DNA of 64,000 bases from contig CAZVLM010000001.1 of assembly GCA_964628065.1 (NCBI GenBank), positions 9,357 to 73,356 on the forward strand, in the 5' to 3' direction. This DNA comes from an uncultured Candidatus Saccharibacteria bacterium (GTDB taxonomy: Bacteria; Patescibacteriota; Minisyncoccia; Phycocordibacterales; UBA1006). Positions within the stretch are counted from its first letter, which is position 1. Every line of letters begins with the position of its first letter. Positions 76 through 63,931 of the stretch are shown piece by piece. Below the pieces are notes generated by a model that did no database searches, was not told where the DNA came from, and worked only from the letters and a program-made list of their open reading frames with translations. Both the position numbers and the translations under genes were made by a program.

Positions 76-109
76 ATGGAAATTATATCATAAACTCTCA
101 ATAAGATTA

Positions 110-195
110 CCCCGCCTTGCTGCGTCCTTCCGTAGCCTCTGGCGAAGGAGGAAATAAGGCGGGGTCGACTGGCCGTAGGCCAGCGGGGGCGGTGG
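110..195. repeat. GC-rich palindromic mini-element (copy A). CCCCGCCTT...AAGGCGGGG hairpin plus a GCGGGGGCGGTGG module.
   Basis: A ~85-nt GC-rich island in AT-rich DNA. It is an inverted copy of the element at 631..684 and shares a module with the elements at 51.2 kb. Confidence 0.6.
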
Positions 196-334
196 TTACT
201 AAAGGATCAGATAGTGAAGCATAAAAGATGCGGCGACCAAAAAATAACTTATATTCATTCAAGATTCTCCTTAATGATTTCAATTACTTTCTCTATATTA
301 TTCCTAATTGATTCATTTTTAAATCGTAATACTT

Positions 335-517
335 TTATGCCAAATCGAGAATGTATCCACTTACACTGTGCTGACGTCGAAACTTAAACCCTGTTGACGA
401 CCCTCTTAGCTCCTGCCAAAGCAGTCCCTCTTCCGGTGTTGGATTATTACGAAGATACCTTCTTCTTTGAAGAAGTCTTTTACTATTATGAACTCGTTCT
501 GGTGGTTTTTTATCCAT
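335..517 (-). pseudogene. Truncated DUF559 (Vsr-like endonuclease-domain) protein remnant
   Basis: The 60-aa ORF ..RRRYLRNNPTPEEGLLWQELRGSSTGFKFRRQHSVSGYILDLA matches the N-terminal half of DUF559 proteins and stops after ~60 aa, where full length is ~110-130 aa. It is flanked by inverted GC-rich elements. Confidence 0.45.
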
Positions 518-630
518 GTCTCCATATTAAAAAACCTTAGATAAAGAAACATCTAAGGAAAGTTAAAGTAAGTATCAAGTTTTTTGAAATACCACAATTT
601 ACTAATTTTACAAAGCTTAGCTTCACAACA

Positions 631-684
631 GCCACCGCCCCCGCCGGCTTCGCCGAGCGACCCCGCCTTATTCAAGGCGGGGTG
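631..684. repeat. GC-rich palindromic mini-element (copy B, inverted relative to A)
   Basis: CCACCGCCCCCGCCGGCTTCGCCGAGCGACCCCGCCTTATTCAAGGCGGGG. It contains a perfect CCCCGCCTT/AAGGCGGGG hairpin. The 20-mer GCTCGGCGAAGCCGGCGGGG (reverse complement) is shared with 51255..51275. Confidence 0.6.
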
Positions 685-686
685 TC

Positions 687-1367
687 TTACTCTACCAACA
701 CTGCCAATTTTTCAATATTCTCTGCGACACTTCCATCTTCAAAAATTGCTGATCCGCATACAAATCGTGTTGCTCCTGCTTTCGCCAATTTGTTAATAGT
801 ATCTTCATTGACTGAGCCATCAATTGAAATTACTTTGTCCGGATACTTCCTATGGAAGTAGGAAATCTTTTCAAGGACATGATCGTCAAATGCCTGACCC
901 TGGGATCCTATAGTTGAAATACCCATGAGCTGTATGAAATCACAGTCATCAATGTATTTTTCGAGAGTTTCATTCGGCGTATCGTTTGAAATACTTAGTC
1001 CGATTTCAATAATACCTCGTGCAAGTTCCATGGCTAAAAAAAGTTTCTGCGGATCTTCTACTGATTCCACGTGCACAACAATACGTGCGGGTTGCATACC
1101 AATCCACTTCTCAATAGAATCCTCAGGTTTATCGATCATAAGATCAAGTTCGTAGTCTAATTCATCAAGCATCGGCAGGTTTGAAAATGAAGTTTTACTT
1201 TTAACAAAAACTCCGTCGCATACATCTACTTGTACATGCGTAACAAGCCCAGCTACTTGCTTGGCTTTATTCGATAATTCAGCTTGGTTTTTTGGCAAAA
1301 TTGCCGGAATAATTTGATTCATATTTTTGAAGGCTTGTAATACATTTTTAAGAAAACAACAAGCCAC
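687..1367 (-). CDS. rpe: Ribulose-phosphate 3-epimerase (likely true start 1322)
   Basis: IIPAILPKN...VQVDVCDGVFV matches the Rpe family (xPSILSAD..HxDVMDGxFV). The ATG at 1322 overlaps the upstream gene's stop by 4 nt (ATGA). Confidence 0.75.
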   Translation of the reverse strand: MACCFLKNVLQAFKNMNQIIPAILPKNQAELSNKAKQVAGLVTHVQVDVCDGVFVKSKTSFSNLPMLDELDYELDLMIDKPEDSIEKWIGMQPARIVVHVESVEDPQKLFLAMELARGIIEIGLSISNDTPNETLEKYIDDCDFIQLMGISTIGSQGQAFDDHVLEKISYFHRKYPDKVISIDGSVNEDTINKLAKAGATRFVCGSAIFEDGSVAENIEKLAVLVE

Positions 1368-8376: not shown

Positions 8377-11300
8377 TTAATTTCCCAAAATCACCTTCGC
8401 CCTCTTACAAAACTCACATTCGCTATTTGCCCCATAAGACTTCGCCACACAAGGTCGGTCCATCCACTCCCCGCTTGAAACAAGTGACTGATAGTCTGCA
8501 ATGTCTTTGATAAGGAGCTCTACTTCTGCATTGCTAATATGCGCAGAATACAATGCGTTTTTATCTCCTTTTTCAGATTCAAGGAAAAGCAATCGTGATT
8601 GGTCTACATGAGCATCCTTTCCTGTCCCTTCAAGAAGGTAAGAATACATGGCGAGTTGTCTCAAGTAACTCGACATGCGACCTTCATCATCACGCTTTTC
8701 AATCATGCCAGTCGTCTTACTGCTTCCTGTTTTAAAGTCGGTTACCGTCATCGTTCCATCAGGAAACCGTTCAGTAAGGTCGATCTTTCCGTACATTGTT
8801 AAATTTGAAAACTGCGGATCGCGATATGAAACGCTTCGTTCTGATTGGCGATCTTTCGCTAGATTAGGATAATAATTTTCAATCCAACCCGAGACGGCAG
8901 TCCATGCGTCTTTACCAAGTCGTGCAATATCTCGCATATCAAGCACCCCTTCACGCTGAAGCGATGTCATGATAATCTTCTTAATTTCAACCTCTGCTGG
9001 AAGCGTATTCTCTTTCAATAAATGCTCAATCGTAACATGTACCGCCGATCCAAGCGCAAGCGAAACACCTTTTACCTCGGGAAGTTTCAAAAAATTTCTA
9101 AAGTACCACTTCCAAGGACACTCAAAAAAGTTATTAAGGAGTGTTACGGATACTCGATTTTCCGCAAATGACTCTTTTACGAATTCCTTTACGGCTGTTT
9201 TTATATCTTCTTCTGGAGAAACAGCAGGTTTCAATGCGTACAATCGAGGATCATTTTCGATGATACGCTTCTCGTTTTCTTCTGCGTCAATTTTCTCAAA
9301 ATGATCTACTGGCAATTCTTCAACGATTCGCGATAGTGTAATGTCGCTTCCACTATCACTGTTTAATGCATATGAAATAGTTGCGTATCGTTTTGCACGA
9401 GTAAGTGCCACATATAACTCCCTTTTTGCGGTCATCACATCACGCGCCGCAATGCGCTCTTCTATTTTTTCAGGAAGCGTAAAGGCGCTCCTTTTTTCTG
9501 ACATCACTACTTCCTCGTTCATGTGACCGATCCATACATACTCGTACTCAAGTCCTTTTGATTTGTGCAAAGTCATGACTCGAATGCCTGATTCCGCTGC
9601 GAAAGCTGCTACGCTGATTTGGGTTCCGTACGTTGCAAGGCGCCCTAGGTACGCAATAAATTCCTTAAGGGTTCCATTAGGATGTTTTGCATACCACGCT
9701 TCCGAACTTAAAATAAGGCTTCGAACTACCTCGATAGATCTGAGTAATGCTTTATGCCCGTGTGATCGATCAATTAATAACTCATTCCCCAACGTTGAAA
9801 TAACACATGGAATCGTTTCGTGGGTTAGTTTGTTTATCCAATGACTAAGGTCTGTTCCCCATTTTACGATAGGGTCTTGATCATGGAACATGCCTGCGTC
9901 TTTTTGGTAATCAATTAAGTCTTGTACAGTTACTTTGTCTGACTTTTTTGTTACTCTTAAAAACTTGTAAGCCCTCATTGGATCGATACCGCTTGTAGCA
10001 TCAAGGAGTGACTCAGTAATTAATACTGAATCATCTGGATTGGCCAAAATTCCAAGGACTCGGATAAAGCTTTTAGCTTCGGGAAGTGTATACAGCGAAA
10101 CACTGGTTTCTGACTGTGCAGGAAGCCCCATGTCACGGAGCGTAGAAACAGCTGAGCGTACTTGGTAATTCTTAGGAAGAAGTAGTGCACATTCGTCTGG
10201 TGAAACGCCTTGGTCTATCTGCTTTTTAAAATAAAGCCCCGCACCTATTATTTCATCACGGGAAAATCGGAATTGTGAAAGATTGATCTTTTCATCACCT
10301 TTTCGATTACTTTTTAAGGCATCAGTTGTAATAGAGCTTTTTAAAAGCGTATCCGCGAGGCTTAATACGGGCGCTGTTGATCGATAGTTTTCCTGAAGCG
10401 TTATTAACTGAGCCTTTCCAAACGCGTGCCTAAACTCGGAAAAATAATCAAGTGATGCTCCGGAAAATCCATAAATAAGCTGGCGATCGTCCCCCACCAC
10501 GAAAATATTTGGAAGTTCTATTTCCTGCCATACCGCCTTCAAGAAATTATTTTGCACCAACGAAGAATCCTGATGCTCATCTACCAGCACGTATTGATAA
10601 TTTTCGTAAATATCAGCACGCACATCCTCATACTCTTCTACGAGTTGTACGACATATTCTAAGGCGTCATCATAGTCCATGAGATTCGCGTCTTTTTTGG
10701 CAGATTCATATTGTCTATAAAATGAGACGACTTCTTTGGTTCGCGACAATGATTCAATCTTTTTTTCTATTTCTTTCTTAAGTTGTCCTTTGCTTGGCCC
10801 TCGTGATGAAATACTGTCTGGATCATTCTTCAAAAATTCTATGTCGCGATCTACTTCTAATGAAAAAGATTCAGGTGAAAGTCGCTCACGCTTCATCAGG
10901 GAAATTAATTGTTTTAAGTCGCCGAAATATTTTGCAGGATCGGTTCGCGGACGAATGTATTCCCATTCTCCTTCTTGTAAAAGACTGTCCACCATTGCAA
11001 CACTTTGATTATCATCAAGGAGTTCGGGAATGTGATCGAAGCCAAGGAGGTTAAAATGCTTTTGTACGAGATCAATCGCAAATCCGTGGAAGGTTGAAAT
11101 TTTAATATCTCGAGCTGTTGTTCCGATATAGCTTTCGAGACGAGCTCGCATAGCAGCGACTCCGGATCGGGTAAACGTAAGGCAAAGAATACTTGAAGGC
11201 AATGTGTCTGTCTTCTTAAGAATATTAGCAATGCGAAGAGCCAACACCTGCGTCTTGCCGGTTCCTGGACCTGCCACAACCATTACGGGACCTTCTATGG

Positions 11301-11848: not shown

Positions 11849-12952
11849 TTATTTCAAAACAACCTTCCCATTTTTAAGTATCAAAAACCCCTCCCTCTCC
11901 AACCCGCTCACAATAGTTTCAATTCTATCCTTATCATCAGAAAGACTTTCCAATTTCTCTTCGAGCTTCTCAATCAAGAGCTTTTTCTTTTCTAAAAGAA
12001 TTTCCAAAATCTTTCCGCGAATCTCGCGATTACTTCCTTCAAATTTTGATTGCTTGGTATAGTGCCTACTTTTCTTATTAGGATTAGGAATCGATTTTCC
12101 TAAATACGACCCGTAGTCCATGAGCGCCCAATACCATTCACGAGGGTTTTCTTTGTCGACAGTTTTTTCTATGAGTTTTAGAAGTTCCCTATCATGCACC
12201 CCAAACACACCCCGCACTTCGTGTCGACCCTCTCTAAAAGAGAGGGTTTGCTCCGATTGGAGTTCGGTCTCGACGGAGACTGCCCTCTCTTTTAGAGAGG
12301 GTGCCACGCGAAGCGGGCGGGTGTGTTTTGACTGGGACTCCGAGAAAAAATGATGCAAGTACACTCGTCGAATATTTGTCTCAATCATCGAGACAGGCTG
12401 ATTGTATGCAAACGCAGAAATCGCTCCCGCTGTATACGGACCGATTCCTGGTAGTGAAAGAATATCTTCATACGTCTGGGGAAATTTTCCTTTAAATCTT
12501 TGCATAATAATTTCCGCTGACCTTTTCATGCGAATTGCCCTCGAATTGTATCCAAGCCCTTTCCATAGCCGAAGTACGTCCGACTGCTTAGCCTCTGCAA
12601 GTGCCTTCACTGTTGGAAATTCCTTCATCCACTTATTGAAAAAATCTACTACTCTGTCTACTTGTGTCTGCTGAAGCATAATCTCCGAAACGTACACATT
12701 GTACGGCTTCGTATTCTTTCTCCACGGCAACTCGTGGCGTCTATTTGCATGATAATAATCCCAGACAGTTTTTTGGAATTTTTTGAGGTCGGAAGGCTTC
12801 ATGTTGGCAATTATACCAGAAACGAAAATCGCCAGACTTCCTTTAGGAAGTCTGGCGATTATTTTACAGTTGTACAAAGAATTACTCAGCCAACTCCTGG
12901 CCGATAAGCGCGCCGCGTCCGCCGCTGTGCACGTAGTCGTCAGAAAACTCAA
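11849..12952 (-). CDS. HhH-GPD DNA glycosylase (MutY/Nth-like). Likely true start is the ATG at 12802. It carries a ~40-aa in-frame insertion encoded by a GC-rich palindromic element.
   Basis: LPWRKNTKPYNVYVSEIMLQQTQV...LPGIGPYTAGAISAFAYNQPVSMIETNIRRV gives the HhH-GPD signature. Residues ~209-251 (KHTRPLRVAPSLKERAVSVETELQSEQTLSFREGRHEVRGVFG) are encoded by element D. No Fe-S Cys cluster is present. Confidence 0.6.
   Translation of the reverse strand: MSFLTTTCTAADAARLSARSWLSNSLYNCKIIARLPKGSLAIFVSGIIANMKPSDLKKFQKTVWDYYHANRRHELPWRKNTKPYNVYVSEIMLQQTQVDRVVDFFNKWMKEFPTVKALAEAKQSDVLRLWKGLGYNSRAIRMKRSAEIIMQRFKGKFPQTYEDILSLPGIGPYTAGAISAFAYNQPVSMIETNIRRVYLHHFFSESQSKHTRPLRVAPSLKERAVSVETELQSEQTLSFREGRHEVRGVFGVHDRELLKLIEKTVDKENPREWYWALMDYGSYLGKSIPNPNKKSRHYTKQSKFEGSNREIRGKILEILLEKKKLLIEKLEEKLESLSDDKDRIETIVSGLEREGFLILKNGKVVLK
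12203..12329. repeat. GC-rich palindromic mini-element (copy D), in frame inside the glycosylase gene
   Basis: Terminal inverted repeats AAACACACCCCGCACTTCGTG / CACGCGAAGCGGGCGGGTGTGTTT. Two internal hairpins: CCCTCTCTAAAAGAGAGGG and CCCTCTCTTTTAGAGAGGG. Confidence 0.7.
12827..12860 (-). terminator. Perfect 15-bp stem hairpin (AATCGCCAGACTTCC-TTTA-GGAAGTCTGGCGATT) followed by a U-tract on the minus strand
   Basis: Inverted repeat read directly from the sequence. It lies downstream of the ORF ending at 12882 and ~25 nt upstream of the glycosylase ATG at 12802. Confidence 0.5.
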
Positions 12953-24574: not shown

Positions 24575-24690
24575 AGTTCTCAGTTCTGGCGACACCTACT
24601 CTCCCTCTTACGAAGTACCATTGGTGTAGCGGCGCTTAACGACTCTGTTCGAAATGGGAAGAGGTGTGACCACCGTACTAAATCACCAGA
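24575..24690 (-). rRNA. rrf: 5S ribosomal RNA
   Basis: The reverse complement reads ..GGTGGTCACACCTCTTCCCATTTCGAACAGAGTCGTTAAGCGCCGCTACACCAATGGTACTTCGTAAGAGGGAGAGTAGGTGTCGCCAGAAC, with helix I closing as GTTCTGGTG / CGCCAGAAC. Confidence 0.75.
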
Positions 24691-24799: not shown

Positions 24800-28205
<3,406 letters not shown>

Positions 28206-51069: not shown

Positions 51070-51300
51070 CCTCACCCCCAGCCCCTCTCCAACACACCCG
51101 TCACTCGCTCCGCTCGTGTACACCCTCTCTAAAAGAGAGGGTTGGCTCCGTCGAGATTATGTACCAATAGAAACTACCGCTTATCTCATAGAGTTAAGCG
51201 GTAGTTTCATTTCAAAATTGAGTCTCGATGTCTACCCTCTCTTTTAGAGAGGGACGCTCGGCGAAGCCGGCGGGGTGTGTTTGTCCGTCGGGTGAGGACA
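51070..51300. repeat. GC-rich composite palindromic element (copy E) with nested inverted repeats
   Basis: Outer IR CCTCACCC / GGGTGAGG. Inner TIR ACACACCCG.. / ..CGGGGTGTGT. Hairpins CCCTCTCTAAAAGAGAGGG, CCCTCTCTTTTAGAGAGGG and AAACTACCGCTTA..TAAGCGGTAGTTT. Confidence 0.7.
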
Positions 51301-51303
51301 AAC

Positions 51304-51330
51304 AAAAAACCGCCCGAAGGCGGTTTTTTG
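51304..51330 (-). terminator. Terminator of the S-layer-like gene (AAAAAACCGCC-CGAA-GGCGGTTTTTT)
   Basis: Perfect hairpin with U-tract immediately downstream of the gene end. Confidence 0.65.
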
Positions 51331-53292: not shown

Positions 53293-53483
53293 AATTAAAA
53301 TTAATTTTAATCATCCTTCCTTATTAAGGGGAAAGAAGTCGTACACGATTCAACGTCGACTTATTAGTGTTGAATCATATGTGTACTATTTTATATTTCT
53401 ATGTTTTGAGACCCACCACTATTATTTGCATAATACTGATCGATAACACAGAAACATTGTGAAGTGTATCTAACCCGTCGGTT

Positions 53484-53600
53484 AGAACACATCACAAGAA
53501 CACACCCGCCCGCTTCGCGAGGCACCCTCTCTAAAAGAGAGGGTAGACCATCGAGATTTTTTTCAGGAAGGAACATTCTTGTGATGTGTTCTTTTCTGAC
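53484..53600. repeat. GC-rich palindromic half-element (copy F) bracketed by a 16-bp inverted repeat
   Basis: ACACACCCGCCCGCTTCGCGAGGCACCCTCTCTAAAAGAGAGGG, flanked by GAACACATCACAAGAA ... TTCTTGTGATGTGTTC. Confidence 0.6.
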
Positions 53601-53959
53601 GCGAAAAGAAACACCGTTAATAACAAAATAAACAAAAGCTAAAAAACTTCTAAGTTTCATTTATTTCTATCTATTTTGTTATCAAGGAATTGGTTTCCAA
53701 CAGATTGAAATCTATCGGAAATCCACAAGCACCGGACCATCATACCATAATCGACCATTCCTTTGCAATACCTAGCCATAAAAGGATTTACGCGAGATAT
53801 TGTCGCAGGAATTGACGCTATGAAATGTGTGGAGTTCGGATAGTATATCGTGCCTATAAAAACACGCAACTTACTTGTCTATACCAGATGACGCACAAAT
53901 GCCCCGCACATTACGGGACATTTGCTAATAACATTCTTTACATTTATGTCAAGTATCTC

Positions 53960-54817
53960 CTAGTTTTTTGAAATCTGATAGGTTGTCCATCTCTTGTTCC
54001 CCTCTTTCCTGACCACATTCATTTCAACTAATGTATTCACTTCTCGTTGGAGGGTCTTATCACTGCAATCGGTCACCATCGACTTGATATCTGCCAACGT
54101 ACAAACTCCTTTCGATTTAATGACATTTAGAATTTCCTGCTTTCTATCGAGCTTATCACTTATTTTTAAAGGTGATTTTATGGTGTCTTTTTGAAATGTC
54201 GTTTTAATTTTAGATATATCTTTTGATATGTCGTTTTGATGTAATAATGTCGTTTTGATGTCGTTTTGATGTCGTTTTGATTGATACCGAGCAACCACTT
54301 CATCAAAGGCGGTGTCGCGCATGATATCTCCGGAAATTAATGGTTGAGACATGGGCACCGATGAAACGATAAATGCTTGTTCTTGCGTGGCTAATTTTGA
54401 TGCTTCGTCAGAAAATATATCTACCAACTTTGTCAATTCGTTTACAATGATATCGGCGTTCATTTGTGATATGTGGTGTGAAATTGATCCGATATGAACC
54501 AGTGATATCACTTGATCAAGTCGTATTGAAACACGTGTTAACGAACCTCGAGAAACACCCTCTTTTGATGTTAATAACCCATACGCGGTTGTGAGTAACT
54601 CCAGCGAATCTTTCCGCAATGACTCTGTAAGGGCTAATGATTTATCCATCACGTCTGTAACCAGATAAATGGCCGCCACAATTTTCTCGATCTTTTTAAC
54701 GGATACAAAGAGCGTCTTTTCTAACGGATTAACGAATAAACCATATAAAATATGAGATTTATTAGAAATGTCGTTTTGATTATTCGCATGTCCTTTTGTA
54801 ATGTCGTTTTGATTCAT
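53960..54817 (-). CDS. Hypothetical DNA-binding protein with C-terminal winged HTH and QNDI peptide repeats. Its gene carries iterated 11-13-bp DNA motifs.
   Basis: C-terminal ..VCTLADIKSMVTDCSDKTLQREVNTLVEMNVVRKEGNKRWTTY.. is wHTH-like. HQNDI repeats are encoded by ATGTCGTTTTG repeats. Confidence 0.45.
   Translation of the reverse strand: MNQNDITKGHANNQNDISNKSHILYGLFVNPLEKTLFVSVKKIEKIVAAIYLVTDVMDKSLALTESLRKDSLELLTTAYGLLTSKEGVSRGSLTRVSIRLDQVISLVHIGSISHHISQMNADIIVNELTKLVDIFSDEASKLATQEQAFIVSSVPMSQPLISGDIMRDTAFDEVVARYQSKRHQNDIKTTLLHQNDISKDISKIKTTFQKDTIKSPLKISDKLDRKQEILNVIKSKGVCTLADIKSMVTDCSDKTLQREVNTLVEMNVVRKEGNKRWTTYQISKN
54196..54281. repeat. Iteron-like direct repeats of ATGTCGTTTTG(AT): 5 copies, including 3 perfect tandem 11-mers at 54247..54279
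   Basis: Copies at 54196, 54228, 54247, 54258 and 54269, read directly from the sequence. Confidence 0.6.
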
Positions 54818-54844: not shown

Positions 54845-54886
54845 CTATAAACGACACTATAAACTTAAAATGTCTTTTATGCAATG

Positions 54887-55013
54887 CCCTCATCCGCCCT
54901 TCGGGCACCTTCTCCCTTTGGGAGAAGGCTACACTTTCGACTTCAGTTGGCACCAATAAAAATGTCTGCCCCTCTCCCTTTGGGAGAGGGTGCCCGAAGG
55001 GCGGGAGAGGGTT
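54887..55013. repeat. GC-rich palindromic mini-element (copy G) immediately upstream of ftsK
   Basis: TIRs CCGCCCTTCGGGCACC / GGTGCCCGAAGGGCGG. Internal hairpins CTTCTCCCTTTGGGAGAAGG and CCCTCTCCCTTTGGGAGAGGG. Confidence 0.65.
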
Positions 55014-55051
55014 GGAATATAAGGGTTTTTACTGATATACTTATAGGACAA

Positions 55052-57313
55052 ATGGCAAAAAAAGATCTGAAACAAAAGAAAAATTCTGTTGAAAAAGCTC
55101 CAGAGGAATCTAGCAATCCTCGTATTAAGCGATCTATTATCGCGATCATTTTACTTGCGATTACGGTAGTTATTATCCTCGGAGCCTTTGATGCGGCAGG
55201 TATTGCCGGTCATTTTATCTATCATTCGGTGCTTAAATTTTTGGTAGGATTTGGTGTTATCTTAGTGCCTATCTTCCTTGTCGTTTATGCGGTAAACCTT
55301 CTTAAGAACCAGCCTCACGAGTGGTCATGGGTTGAGTATGTTAGCTCTTCCCTTTTGATGATTTCCATCCTTGGTTTCATCCAAATTATTTCTCCAGGAA
55401 TTAAAGGCGGTGGCGTTATTGGGTACGGCATAGGAACCGTTATGACGAAGATTTTTGATGTCTATGCCGGCGCAACAATATTAGGTGCCGTTGCACTTAT
55501 TTCGACATTGGTACTTATTGATGAGGAATTAAGAATGCCTGCGTTCCTTAAAAATATGTTTTCTAAGTCTTCAAAAGAAGAGTCATTTGTTGATGAAGAT
55601 TTTGTACTCACAAAAGCAGATTTGAATGAATTACCACCAGCTCCAATAGCGGACCCTCTCCTTGCAGGAGAGGGTGGACGGCGCCAGCCGCCGGGTGAGG
55701 TTGTGAAAGCTGAAGTACCCGAAGAACCTCGGATTGCTAAAAAAGAAAAAGTTGAGGACGAGTTCATTACTGCAAATGCCGTATTTTCAGAAACATATGA
55801 ATACCCTCCAACCAGCCTCCTTGGTCAGTCATCAGGCAAGCCATCCGTTGGAGACATCAAAGCGAACGCGAACTTGATCAAGCGAACCCTTTTGAACTTT
55901 GGAATTGATGTGGAAATGGATGAAGTTTCAATCGGGCCAACCGTGACTCGCTACGCTTTGAAACCAGCGGAAGGTATTAAGCTGACCCGAATTCTCGCAC
56001 TCAAATCTGACCTTGCACTCGCCCTTGCCGCCCACCCTATTCGAATCGAAGCCCCTATCCCTGGCAAGTCATTAGTAGGTATCGAAATTCCGAACAGAAC
56101 TCTTGAGAATGTAGGTCTTGGAACCCTGCTTGATGAAGACTCATTCCAGAATTCTCCTAACCGTCTTCAGGTTGCCCTTGGAAAGGGGGTGGCTGGAAAG
56201 TCTTACTTTGCAAACTTAGCAAAAATGCCGCACCTTTTGATTGCCGGAACTACAGGATCAGGAAAGTCGGTTACTATGCACAACTTAATCCTGTCGCTCT
56301 TATATAAGAACGGACCTGAAGACCTCCGGGTTATTATGATCGACCCAAAACGAGTAGAACTTACTCTTTATAATGATATCCCCCACCTTCTAACACCTGT
56401 TATTAAAGAATCAAAGAAGGCTATCCTTGCCCTTAAATGGGCCGCGAAGGAAATGGAACGACGGTATGACATTCTTGAAAATTGCTCATGCCGAGACATT
56501 CAGTCCTATCATGCAAATATCCAAGACCCCTACTATGCTAAGACCAAGAAAAAAAGTCGCGATGACGATGATACAGATACCAAGGCGCCGGAGCGAATGC
56601 CTTACATCGTAGTATTTATTGAAGAGTTGGCCGACATCATGCAGGCATATCCTCGCGAATTGGAAGCCGGTATTGTCCGACTTGCCCAAATGTCCCGAGC
56701 CGTGGGTATTCACCTCATCCTTTCAACCCAGCGACCATCCGTGAACGTTATTACCGGACTTATTAAAGCCAATATTCCATCACGATTAGCACTTCAAGTA
56801 GCCTCTCAGATTGACTCTCGAACAATTTTGGATGCGCCAGGCGCCGAATCGCTTCTTGGTAAGGGAGATATGCTCTATCAAGGTGCTGACATGTCTAAGC
56901 CTGAACGTATGCAGTGTGCAAACGTAGATGAAAACCAAGTTAAGAAAGTCGTTGCCTTTATTAAGAAGCACAACGTTTCCCTTCCTGACGAAATCGCCTT
57001 GGGCGAAGTATTGGATGATGACCGATCAATTGTTTCAGCTAATCTTGAAAGCGACGAGGACGACGAACTTTATGAAGATGCTCGAGCCTGCGTTATTGAG
57101 GCCGGCAAAGCTTCAACCAGCTATATTCAGCGAAAATTGAAGGTTGGCTACTCTCGAGCAGCGCGCCTCATCGACCTTTTGGAGGAACGCGGAGTGGTTG
57201 GTCCTGCGGACGGCGCGAAACCTAGAGAAGTACTTAGTGGTGGATCTTCTCCTGAAATTGGGTTATCCACAACCGATGTTATTGATAGATTAAACGAGGA
57301 GAGCGAGGTATAA
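55052..57313 (+). CDS. ftsK: DNA translocase FtsK (start reassigned to the ATG at 55052)
   Basis: N-terminal TM helices, Walker A GTTGSGKS, Walker B/RecA-like motor, C-terminal gamma wHTH (..YIQRKLKVGYSRAARLIDLLEERGVVGP..). The track ORF start at 54884 reads through repeat element G. Confidence 0.9.
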   Translation: MAKKDLKQKKNSVEKAPEESSNPRIKRSIIAIILLAITVVIILGAFDAAGIAGHFIYHSVLKFLVGFGVILVPIFLVVYAVNLLKNQPHEWSWVEYVSSSLLMISILGFIQIISPGIKGGGVIGYGIGTVMTKIFDVYAGATILGAVALISTLVLIDEELRMPAFLKNMFSKSSKEESFVDEDFVLTKADLNELPPAPIADPLLAGEGGRRQPPGEVVKAEVPEEPRIAKKEKVEDEFITANAVFSETYEYPPTSLLGQSSGKPSVGDIKANANLIKRTLLNFGIDVEMDEVSIGPTVTRYALKPAEGIKLTRILALKSDLALALAAHPIRIEAPIPGKSLVGIEIPNRTLENVGLGTLLDEDSFQNSPNRLQVALGKGVAGKSYFANLAKMPHLLIAGTTGSGKSVTMHNLILSLLYKNGPEDLRVIMIDPKRVELTLYNDIPHLLTPVIKESKKAILALKWAAKEMERRYDILENCSCRDIQSYHANIQDPYYAKTKKKSRDDDDTDTKAPERMPYIVVFIEELADIMQAYPRELEAGIVRLAQMSRAVGIHLILSTQRPSVNVITGLIKANIPSRLALQVASQIDSRTILDAPGAESLLGKGDMLYQGADMSKPERMQCANVDENQVKKVVAFIKKHNVSLPDEIALGEVLDDDRSIVSANLESDEDDELYEDARACVIEAGKASTSYIQRKLKVGYSRAARLIDLLEERGVVGPADGAKPREVLSGGSSPEIGLSTTDVIDRLNEESEV
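55652..55700. repeat. GC-rich palindromic mini-element (copy H), in frame within the ftsK linker region
   Basis: GGACCCTCTCCTTGCAGGAGAGGGTGGACGGCGCCAGCCGCCGGGTGAGG encodes ..DPLLAGEGGRRQPPGEV.. Confidence 0.6.
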
Positions 57314-63121: not shown

Positions 63122-63931
63122 TTAAACACTTAGATTAAAGAATTTTTGTGTATTTTTAAGGAGTTGCTGGCGCACATCTTCCTCATCCATATTTTTAAGT
63201 TCCGCAACCTTCTTCGCAACTTCTATCACCATCCATGGCTCGCACGGTTTTCCTCGATACGGTGCAGGCGCTGCAAATGGCGCATCTGTTTCTATCATGA
63301 GTGATTCAAGTGGTACTGCCTTTATCATTTCGTCATAATCTCGTGAAAAAGTAATCGGTCCATCAACGGAAACAGTAAAACCTGCGGAAACAATTGCTTC
63401 CATACATTCTTTTGATCCTGAGAAGAAATGGAAATTGGCACGCAGTGGTGCGGAATCCTCCTCTTGCCAAGAGGAGGTGCCGAGGCTCTGCGAGGCGGAG
63501 GAGTTTTCAAGAATTTTTAATGCATCATAATACGCATTATCACTCCCCTTCGATGCGCGCACATGAAGCATCAGTGGCTTGTTTACTTTCTTTGCGAGGG
63601 TAATATGCTTCTTAAAAATATCTTCTTGAATCTTTCGAGATTCGGGAGTGTCTTCATGAAAATAGTCGAGTCCGGTTTCGCCAATGGCGACTACTTTAGG
63701 ATTGAGGGCAAGTTTTTCTAGTTCACTCCAGCCACCATCCTCACCCGGTTCGCTGCGCGAACCACCCTCTCCACTATCGTGGAGAGGGTTACTGCAATAG
63801 CATGGATGGATTCCCACTGTTGCCCAGCAGGTGTCAGGATACGCCTCAGCGATCTCAACCGCTGTTTTGGAGGTCTCAAGCCCTGTTCCAACCGTGATCG
63901 TCGCCACACCCAAATCTTTCATTTTAGCCAC
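63122..63931 (-). CDS. TatD-family metal-dependent hydrolase carrying two in-frame GC-rich palindromic insertions
   Basis: ..TVGIHPCY...VVAIGETGLDY...LMLHVRAS...FHFFSGS...IETDAPF.. are TatD motifs. Extra segments SNPLHDSGEGGSRSEPGEDGGW and NSSASQSLGTSSWQEEDSAPLRA are encoded by the elements at 63737..63790 and 63448..63505. Confidence 0.8.
   Translation of the reverse strand: MAKMKDLGVATITVGTGLETSKTAVEIAEAYPDTCWATVGIHPCYCSNPLHDSGEGGSRSEPGEDGGWSELEKLALNPKVVAIGETGLDYFHEDTPESRKIQEDIFKKHITLAKKVNKPLMLHVRASKGSDNAYYDALKILENSSASQSLGTSSWQEEDSAPLRANFHFFSGSKECMEAIVSAGFTVSVDGPITFSRDYDEMIKAVPLESLMIETDAPFAAPAPYRGKPCEPWMVIEVAKKVAELKNMDEEDVRQQLLKNTQKFFNLSV
63448..63505. repeat. GC-rich palindromic mini-element (copy I1), in frame inside TatD
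   Basis: CCTCCTCTTG-CCAAGAGGAGG hairpin plus GCCGAGGCTCTGCGAGGCGGAGG. Confidence 0.6.
63737..63790. repeat. GC-rich palindromic mini-element (copy I2), in frame inside TatD
   Basis: CCTCACCC GGTTCGC-TGC-GCGAACC A CCCTCTCC-ACTATCGT-GGAGAGGG. Confidence 0.6.

Follow-up and report, generated by a model that had tools for sequence, protein, structure and literature searches.

The stretch of DNA analyzed here is a 64,000-nt part of contig CAZVLM010000001.1 from an uncultured Candidatus Saccharibacteria bacterium ("the window"). The element in question is located at about 53.5 kb in the intergenic spacer upstream of a gene for a 643-aa surface protein. This spacer measures 667 nt (53293-53959), as originally predicted, and contains one arm of a GC-rich palindromic repeat family, a "half-element," bracketed by a perfect inverted repeat. 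The inverted repeat is most probably an old and conserved hairpin of the RNA type in the leader of the surface-protein gene, and the half-element is the arm of a mobile repeat that landed in the variable tip of this hairpin, being a passenger there and not a co-opted stabilizer. The host stem is conserved and covaries, six of eight lineages lack the element, and the repeat family is mobile. The region is predicted to be transcribed, the stem presumably has a role, and the insertion was presumably neutral. The original prediction, in contrast, had regarded the structures on both sides of the gene as derived from the repeat family and as possible mRNA-stabilizing stem-loops or terminators.

The inverted repeat was indeed perfect, with a length of 17 bp instead of the 16 bp stated originally, and its arms AGAACACATCACAAGAA and TTCTTGTGATGTGTTCT were separated by 75 nt (Table 1). 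A perfect 17-bp repeat with arms less than 100 nt apart should occur by chance in a 660-nt region with an expectation of about 4e-6, which is a hand estimate made without a tool. A search with 0 to 2 mismatches allowed did not find the 17-bp arm sequence anywhere else in the window. Between the arms, ACACACCC, GCCCGCTTCGCGAGGC, a single A, CCCTCTCTAAAAGAGAGGG, and TAGACCATCGAGA followed each other in this order. Apart from one deviating base (A for T), the sequence ACACACCCGCCCGCTTCGCGAGGCACCCTCTCTAAAAGAGAGGG at positions 53500-53543 matched the right arm of the 12.2-kb element in reverse complement, so that the predicted near-identity of both was correct. The 19-nt core hairpin CCCTCTCTAAAAGAGAGGG occurred five times in the window, at positions 12228, 12283, 51123, 51235, and 53525, which gave 10 matches with both strands counted compared to 0.03 expected. 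Four of these copies formed inverted pairs, one pair at 12.2 kb and one at 51.1 kb, and the fifth was the single one at 53.5 kb, adding up to five arms of this subfamily in the window. A profile of eleven arms (nhmmer) assigned positions 53499-53560 to the half-element with E = 4e-17. Only one arm and one element terminus, ACACACCC at position 53500, were present, and not the two terminal inverted repeats (TIRs) of a miniature inverted-repeat transposable element (MITE). The 109-nt hairpin region composed of stem and insert had a folding energy of -56.6 kcal/mol (z = -9.3), and the basal stem was retained with the insert in the minimum-free-energy as well as in the centroid structure.

The stem was found at the homologous position upstream of the ortholog of the peptidoglycan-binding surface protein in eight syntenic loci, including the window (related loci are designated by L numbers). 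The gene order divergent ftsK, a gene for a protein of 28x aa, a 570- to 780-nt spacer, the surface-protein gene, and a Wzy_C gene was kept in all long contigs recovered and was seen in L064, L065, L066, L067, L069, L090, and L155, which makes the gene syntenic within a group of Paceibacteria/Nomurabacteria-like genomes of the Patescibacteria. The non-coding DNA of the spacer showed blocks of conservation that in some places exceeded that of the protein. The repeat element was absent from the stem in six lineages (L064, L155, L067, L088, L069, and L090), the apical loops of which were about 17 to 37 nt long. The arm sequences varied between the lineages with the pairing kept, for instance in the pattern GAATACG(C/T)CACATAAAT of L067 and L088, and the distance from arm to arm ranged from about 17 to about 150 nt. 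The comparison of orthologous flanks proposed in the original prediction showed in this way that the stem was kept and that the repeat elements of the window were not conserved.

Seven distinct leaders were used to evaluate covariation. In the stem and a small adjoining hairpin, 92.5% of the cells were paired, and both sides had changed in 11 of 21 pairs. None of 500 shuffles performed as well, and sliding the structure by 1 to 3 columns decreased pairing to 37 to 46%. RNAalifold, without any structure supplied, recovered the same helix, extended outward in most sequences, as part of a consensus leader fold with 82 pairs, 24 of them with compensatory changes. The presence of the stem without the element in six lineages, together with this covariation, indicates that the stem is a host structure, older than the element and vertically inherited. 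This result bears on the suggestion that a distinct small transposable element carries the half-element as cargo, with the 17-bp arms as its TIRs or its duplicated target. The perfect repeat directly flanks sequence of the repeat family, and AGAACACA appears at the start of the arm and again at the junction with the element, which may suggest such an origin. Nevertheless, the arm sequence was unique in the window, and the repeat occupied an orthologous and syntenic site in eight lineages while undergoing compensatory changes, as expected for vertical inheritance and not for a mobile end, making this explanation extremely improbable.

The pairing appeared to be of the RNA type. On the gene strand, the stem contained six G.U cells compared to one A.C cell, the consensus leader fold had -52.5 kcal/mol in sense versus -29.8 kcal/mol in antisense direction, and each of the seven leaders folded better in sense than in antisense, by 13 to 44 kcal/mol. 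An RNA helix in the direction of the gene is favored over a protein operator by this G.U bias, the better folding in sense, the conservation of pairing only, and the variable distance between the arms. That the palindrome might work as DNA, either by forming a cruciform or by serving as the operator of a dimeric regulator, is consistent with its location in a regulatory spacer. The neighboring gene for a 285-aa protein without a Pfam match, the C-terminal end of which appears winged-helix-like by eye, could add to this, as could a second, invariant palindrome at the ATG. A function at the DNA level is nevertheless very improbable because the arm sequence was not conserved and the pairing alone was, G.U pairs existed on one strand only with sense folding far better than antisense, and a half-site distance of about 17 to about 150 nt is too variable for a protein operator. 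The second palindrome, TTAAAATTAATTTTAA, might by itself bind a protein or serve as a translation signal. A metagenome scan with the invariant block upstream of the ATG, ATTAAAATTAATTTTAATTATG, yielded mostly chance matches to AT-rich sequences, plus one truncated ortholog, L087.

Three promoter-like motifs, P1, P2, and P3, preceded the stem (Table 1). In the orthologs, the hexamers and the spacing of P2 and P3 were kept with varying sequences between the hexamers. A leader starting from P3 would have a length of about 440 nt in the window and of 306 to 360 nt in the lineages without the insert, and the stem would begin about 140 nt downstream of P3, the nearest of these motifs. A terminator scan of the gene strand between the stem and the ATG found no terminator-like sites except two weak ones inside the inserted arm. 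The conserved promoter-like motifs upstream and the missing terminator before the ATG suggest that the stem is part of a transcribed leader, and the structure is very probably located in the transcribed leader of a conserved surface-protein gene. No Rfam family reached the gathering score for the leader with or without the insert, and only eukaryotic miRNA and snoRNA models appeared far below the threshold.

The hairpin might alternatively be part of an independent small RNA encoded in the spacer, with the insertion in the tip of that RNA. Promoter-like motifs 140 to 350 nt upstream of the stem, a fourth and weak promoter-like site at 53401-53374 between the stem and the ATG, and the conservation of the region, which exceeded that of the protein, would agree with this possibility. 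However, the only terminator-like sites between the stem and the ATG on the gene strand were the two weak ones in the inserted arm. Moreover, the conserved helices of the consensus fold reached the ribosome-binding region, and a long-range pair was predicted between the 5' end of the leader and a site near the ATG. A separate small RNA is thus quite unlikely, and the hairpin remains assigned to the leader of the surface-protein gene.

The co-option of repeat-family structures as mRNA stabilizers or terminators bracketing the gene, involving the inverted repeat, the half-element, and the copy at about 51070-51300, needs to be considered against this background. This copy was present on the other side of the gene as originally predicted, both structures were very stable, four copies of the family were clustered within 5 kb around the gene, and S-layer genes use stem-loops in the 5' untranslated region (5'-UTR) for mRNA stability (PMC10221546). 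Yet, the inverted repeat predates the element, being present without it in six orthologous lineages and covarying there, and the elements were not conserved among the orthologs. The stem-loop predicted originally, with its possible role for the mRNA, stands, albeit not its derivation from the repeat family. A function as terminator does not agree with the lack of a U-tract on the gene strand after either structure; at the 53.5-kb hairpin, the stem was followed by AACCGACGG, which is not an intrinsic terminator. The 51.1-kb copy was positioned downstream of a strong, canonical terminator (51303-51330) and is consequently outside the surface-protein mRNA, as far as the sequence tells. It was absent from L063, which encodes a 93% identical surface protein and has the terminator directly followed by the -10-like TATGCTAGAAT of the next gene, so that the window contains about 230 nt extra. 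Two copies acting as a functional bracket could not be upheld, and co-option in general is improbable.

The mobility of the family is indicated by the empty sites in L063 and L154, by an in-frame insertion into a gene at 12.2 kb, and by solo arms in other genomes, which were found in L016, L054, L055, and L062 as well. PDB entry 8uuc_A aligned to residues 23-156 and 202-293 of the MutY-like protein and possessed only 2 residues of its own between these aligned blocks, identifying the 12.2-kb element as a 45-aa in-frame insert. The doublet at 54.9 kb had the sequence CCTTCTCCC-TTT-GGGAGAAGG and CCCTCTCCC-TTT-GGGAGAGGG; it was missing in L154, the upstream protein of which is 94% identical, and replaced 22 nt of the empty allele. 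Due to this doublet, the ftsK open reading frame (ORF) seems to begin at position 54884, and the true start is probably the ATG at 55053. In the FtsK linker of L064, the sequence DPLTVGEN is possibly a decayed version of the insert found in the window and in L154. No target-site duplication was evident at the 51.1-kb or the 54.9-kb junction, which is not final since the genomes compared were not identical. At all three junctions seen in close relatives, some of the bases beside the element differed, and insertion may replace target bases instead of duplicating them.

Other GC-rich palindromic elements were seen just past the terminator of the upstream gene in the orthologous spacers of L065 (about 9290-9350), L068 (about 1100-1200), and L069 (about 2385-2420). 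Hairpin tips and sites directly after terminators seem to be where the family usually resides. A pyrimidine/purine hairpin CCTCCTCTTGCCAAGAGGAGG at 63457-63477 and a GC island at 63728-63767, both inside an ORF at 63122-63931 (minus strand), may be further in-frame members.

Some arms of this family are associated with ORFs for DUF559 endonucleases. A scan for the core hairpin with one genome per species detected this arm type in bins of Saccharibacteria and Nomurabacteria, and a sister arm type, the terminus of which is CTCACCCC, in Bacteroidota and a Clostridiales bin. Two identical 60-nt arms surrounded a 123-aa DUF559 ORF in L012 (E = 9e-24), and DUF559 ORFs were enclosed by 35- to 47-nt arms with 84 to 97% complementarity in L017, L030, and L037. 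In L065 (GCA_964997265.1), DUF559 (E = 5e-32) was located in frame inside a TatD_DNase domain, all in a single 429-aa ORF at 569-1858, and was flanked by perfect 34-nt inverted arms ATCCCATCCCCAACCCTTCCCAAAGGGAAGGGAG, with arms and DUF559 being read through. The ORF-less element at the tip of the L065 leader hairpin had the same arm type as this TatD insert. Among 45 DUF559-like loci on viral contigs, picked by the protein alone, two (L110 and L098) had arms above the null expectation, both of the CCCTCTCC/GGGGTGAGG type. Judged from these sequences, the link between DUF559 and the arms is real for a subset of the DUF559 genes and not general. No transposase of the insertion sequence (IS) type was found between matching arms, with 64 kb of the source genome covered, and DUF559 endonucleases were the sole ORFs found there. 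A literature search on DUF559 with inverted repeats, on MITEs of the Candidate Phyla Radiation, and on the motif GGGGGTGAGG returned nothing relevant.

The arms could be the ends of undescribed compact mobile elements of about 0.5 kb with a Vsr-like DUF559 endonuclease as the sole gene, occurring in Patescibacteria, Bacteroidales, and Clostridiales. Such elements would shed ORF-less doublets and solo arms and would be able to insert into essential genes in frame and into structured RNAs at their tips. This explanation is tentative, with a somewhat less than even chance of being correct. If true, it would make the leader hairpin a recurrent landing site with two independent insertions in eight lineages.

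For the 53.5-kb site, the following sequence of events is proposed. Transcription of the leader probably starts at up to three sigma-70-like promoters in tandem. A solo arm would have entered the apical loop, where the leader can vary freely in both length and sequence. This arm would form its own fold stacked on the host stem, without changing the basal stem or the remaining leader fold, and would most likely be a tolerated passenger with at most a small stabilizing effect. Any function may then be located in the host hairpin and the leader and, if S-layer genes are taken as the model, would be mRNA stabilization, processing, or translational control; the best guess is that the host stem stabilizes or processes an abundant surface-protein transcript. 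RNase III recognizes substrates such as a perfect duplex of 17 to 20 bp.

If the insertion was not neutral, the longer duplex could alter processing, for example, by RNase III, or a weak attenuator could change expression of the surface protein. The rise of the hairpin energy to -56.6 kcal/mol, a 5-bp GC stem with a T-rich tail flagged inside the arm on the gene strand, and the element at the same tip in L065 point in this direction. On the other hand, the T-rich tail coincides with the 3' arm of the host stem, where pairing is expected, and most lineages were without the element, so that an effect of this kind is unlikely, though less so than the other alternatives to a tolerated passenger in an old leader hairpin.

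Several points nevertheless weigh against a conserved leader hairpin with a passenger arm. The promoters are consensus matches, and the stem could remain untranscribed or belong to a small RNA of its own. The insertion is assumed to be neutral. The contig of L154, the closest relative with data and with a 94% identical upstream protein, ends 12 nt inside the stem and consequently provides no near-identical empty site for the 53.5-kb copy. At this contig end (L154, 5330-5341; window, 53492-53503), about 60 nt were identical in both sequences up to ...GAACACATCACA, followed by CAAATGCAAACC in L154 versus AGAATGTTCCTT in the window, where the L154 contig stops. The nearest clear empty sites come from lineages with about 65% identical surface proteins. 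Two independent insertions of elements into one loop among eight lineages may indicate targeting or selection instead of mere tolerance, and in view of the second one, in L065, hairpin tips may be preferred targets. As to the origin of the arm, the DUF559 link rests on six loci, and most DUF559 genes are without such arms.

The coordinates of these and further features are listed in Table 1. An ORF of just 89 aa spanning the hairpin (53391-53660) was rejected as a gene: it had no Pfam match, and the loop lengths of the orthologs differed by non-multiples of 3. No gene was called across the stem in the orthologs, and L090 had just a 71-aa call at the start of the spacer. Homologs of the surface protein came nearly all from metagenome bins of Patescibacteria, Paceibacterota, or Nomurabacteria, and an exact-protein look-up of the 643-aa protein found no record. 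The window also contained a 23S rRNA gene (24826-28189, minus strand) with a group I intron (25122-25338; Rfam, 57.4 bits), a 5S rRNA gene (24584-24690), and Wzy_C/TPR genes. The intron and these genes fit a Patescibacteria-like host. No tRNA genes were found in the whole 64 kb. The 285-aa neighbor (53960-54817, minus strand) was conserved without a Pfam match, and its C-terminal end looks like a winged helix. It contained QNDI-type peptide repeats encoded by ATGTCGTTTTGA repeats at about 54170-54290, and a scan of viral contigs for this protein gave no match. The motif CAAAACGACA also builds the terminator hairpin after the orthologous 285-aa-type gene in L065, L067, and L069.

Table 1. Features of the 64-kb window and stems of the orthologous leaders
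Feature	Position	Strand	Remarks
5' arm of conserved leader stem, gene strand (AGAACACAUCACAAGAA as RNA); right arm in the original prediction	53576..53592	-	Homologous arm with compensatory changes in L064, L155, L065, L067, L088, L069, L090
3' arm of conserved leader stem; left arm in the original prediction	53484..53500	-	Pairing and consensus fold
Solo arm (half-element) of the GC-rich palindromic family	53499..53560	+	nhmmer profile, arm alignment, one terminus
Solo-arm module, terminus ACACACCC	53500-53507		
Solo-arm module, variable hairpin	53508-53523		
Solo-arm module, invariant hairpin CCCTCTCTAAAAGAGAGGG	53525-53543		
Solo-arm module, tail TAGACCATCGAGA	53544-53556		
Remaining apical loop, T-run and CAGGAAGGAACA	53561..53575		Not alignable to ortholog loops; element interior or old loop
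Second small conserved hairpin, UCUAACC-GACG-GGUUAGA	53469..53486	-	Directly 3' of the stem; covaries AACC/GGTT, AGCC/GGCT, GGGC/GCCT
Putative structured 5' leader, third promoter-like motif to ATG	53293..53733	-	-160 kcal/mol, z = -10.9
Promoter-like P1, TTGACA, 16 nt, TATTAG	53925..53952	-	Just past stop codon of upstream gene; TTGAC[AT] in 7/7 orthologs, -10 less conserved
Promoter-like P2, TTGCGT, 16 nt, TATACT	53842..53869	-	Pattern matched in 6/7 orthologs scanned; L088 variant TTGCAC
Promoter-like P3, TTGCAA, 18 nt, TATGAT preceded by TG	53739..53768	-	Hexamers conserved, spacer variable in 7 orthologs
Perfect 16-bp palindrome TTAAAATTAATTTTAA	53295..53310		Ends 3 nt before ATG; invariant in all orthologous leaders of the group
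Surface-protein gene, 643 aa	51361..53292	-	Signal peptide, PG_binding_1, long Ser/Thr/Ala/Gly/Asn-rich region
Intrinsic terminator of surface-protein gene	51303..51330	-	12-bp stem, loop TTCG, then T-run; conserved in L063, L064
Composite palindromic element, two inverted arms and outer CCTCACCC/GGGTGAGG repeat	51070..51300		Inserted past terminator; empty site in L063
Doublet element, in-frame 45-aa insert	12203..12327		In MutY-like HhH-GPD glycosylase gene (11849-12952, -)
Sister-subfamily doublet, 133 nt	54885..55017		In divergent spacer between 285-aa gene and ftsK; empty site in L154
Sister-subfamily solo arm (CCCTCTCC-TTGC-AGGAGAGGG ... GGGTGAGG)	55648..55705		In frame in FtsK linker as ADPLLAGEGGRRQPPGEV; also in L154
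Decayed DUF559 gene between GC-rich inverted arms	105..690	-	N-terminal fragment 335-517 (-); arms share CGCTCGGCGAAGCCGGCGGGG (21 nt) with the 51.1-kb arm
L064 stem			5' arm GAACACTACGCAAAAAT pairing with ATTTTTGCGTAGTGTTC; 23-nt loop
L155 stem			Identical to L064 stem; 21-nt loop
L067 stem			5' arm GAATACGCCACATAAAT; apical 28 nt
L088 stem			5' arm GAATACGTCACATAAAT; apical 27 nt
L069 stem			5' arm GAACGCCACACAC; apical ~37 nt
L090 stem			5' arm ACGCCGCAAGAACG; short additional helix at apex
L065 stem			5' arm GAATACGTCACATAAGAAAGA; ~115-nt palindromic element of a different subfamily, sequence unrelated to the window's arm

For annotation, these results mean that the inverted repeat, instead of being a product of the repeat family, indicates a hairpin that is conserved and covaries within a long structured leader. 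In Patescibacteria, this leader is a candidate for a new cis-regulatory RNA motif without an Rfam match; hardly anything is known about gene regulation and the cell envelope of these bacteria. The tip of the hairpin would be the site where the leader tolerates additional sequence. Taken alone, the 53.5-kb copy is nothing unusual for a mobile palindromic repeat, and its wider value is that it exposed a candidate structured leader RNA and a DUF559-linked repeat family that inserts in frame. This family is active, invades genes in frame, and is tied in several phyla to DUF559 endonuclease ORFs, which provides a testable idea for the function of a subset of a widespread domain of unknown function.

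Among the known systems, the Rickettsia palindromic elements (RPEs) are also short palindromic repeats that spread in a small genome, intergenic as well as in frame in genes. The in-frame cases of the family were the MutY-like gene, the FtsK linker, and the TatD gene of L065, whereas the 53.5-kb copy was non-coding. A transposase of its own is known for neither group. The host phylum is unrelated and the sequence presumably so, and the family differs from the RPEs by its modular nested hairpins, an invariant CCCTCTCT-AAA-AGAGAGGG module, and loci flanking a DUF559 ORF; RPEs are not known to have an associated ORF.

REP/REPIN-RAYT systems likewise have a hairpin unit that occurs as singlets and inverted doublets near terminators and in non-coding regions forming RNAs, with singlets being common. 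The family, however, possesses no GTAG or CGTC tag, its terminus is AACACACCC, and its unit comprises about 60 nt compared to 20 to 40 nt. REP sequences are extragenic, whereas the family was also found in frame in the MutY-like gene and in FtsK, and the ORFs found between its arms encoded DUF559 endonucleases of the PD-(D/E)XK type instead of a Y1 transposase. Bacterial MITEs such as Correia, ERIC, RUP, and Nezha resemble the family in being small, non-coding, and multi-copy, with TIRs in the doublets of the family and a presence that varies between close relatives, and both co-transcription and folding into long hairpins are possible. In contrast to MITEs, the family showed no visible target-site duplication but replacement of some target bases, and no IS-type transposase partner was found. 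The 53.5-kb copy has only one end, and the 17-bp inverted repeat flanking it is host sequence.

S-layer genes such as Lactobacillus slpA and others have a long leader, a stable stem-loop, and more than one promoter (PMC10221546). Similarly, the surface-protein leader contains three conserved promoter-like motifs and a covarying stem, and its structure was conserved among the orthologs. In difference to the S-layer leaders, the stem in the window is about 140 nt away from the nearest predicted start and not at the 5' end, and the leader is much longer with 300 to 450 nt. The analogy is a reasonable one for a predicted transcript and a putatively highly expressed, S-layer-like protein.

Vsr-like free-standing homing endonucleases interrupt or fracture genes, and hairpins have been reported beside their ORF (Dassa et al. 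2009, PMC2677866; I-Bth0305I, PMC3239194). As in these cases, a small ORF with a Vsr/PD-(D/E)XK fold resides inside a host gene, the TatD gene of L065, which concerns the family and not the 53.5-kb copy. The known elements split the host gene or are located in introns or inteins, whereas the TatD gene of L065 is one continuous ORF, and the ORF of the family is bracketed by 34- to 47-nt inverted arms that also exist without an ORF. The Vsr-like homing endonucleases are the nearest precedent for the DUF559 link.

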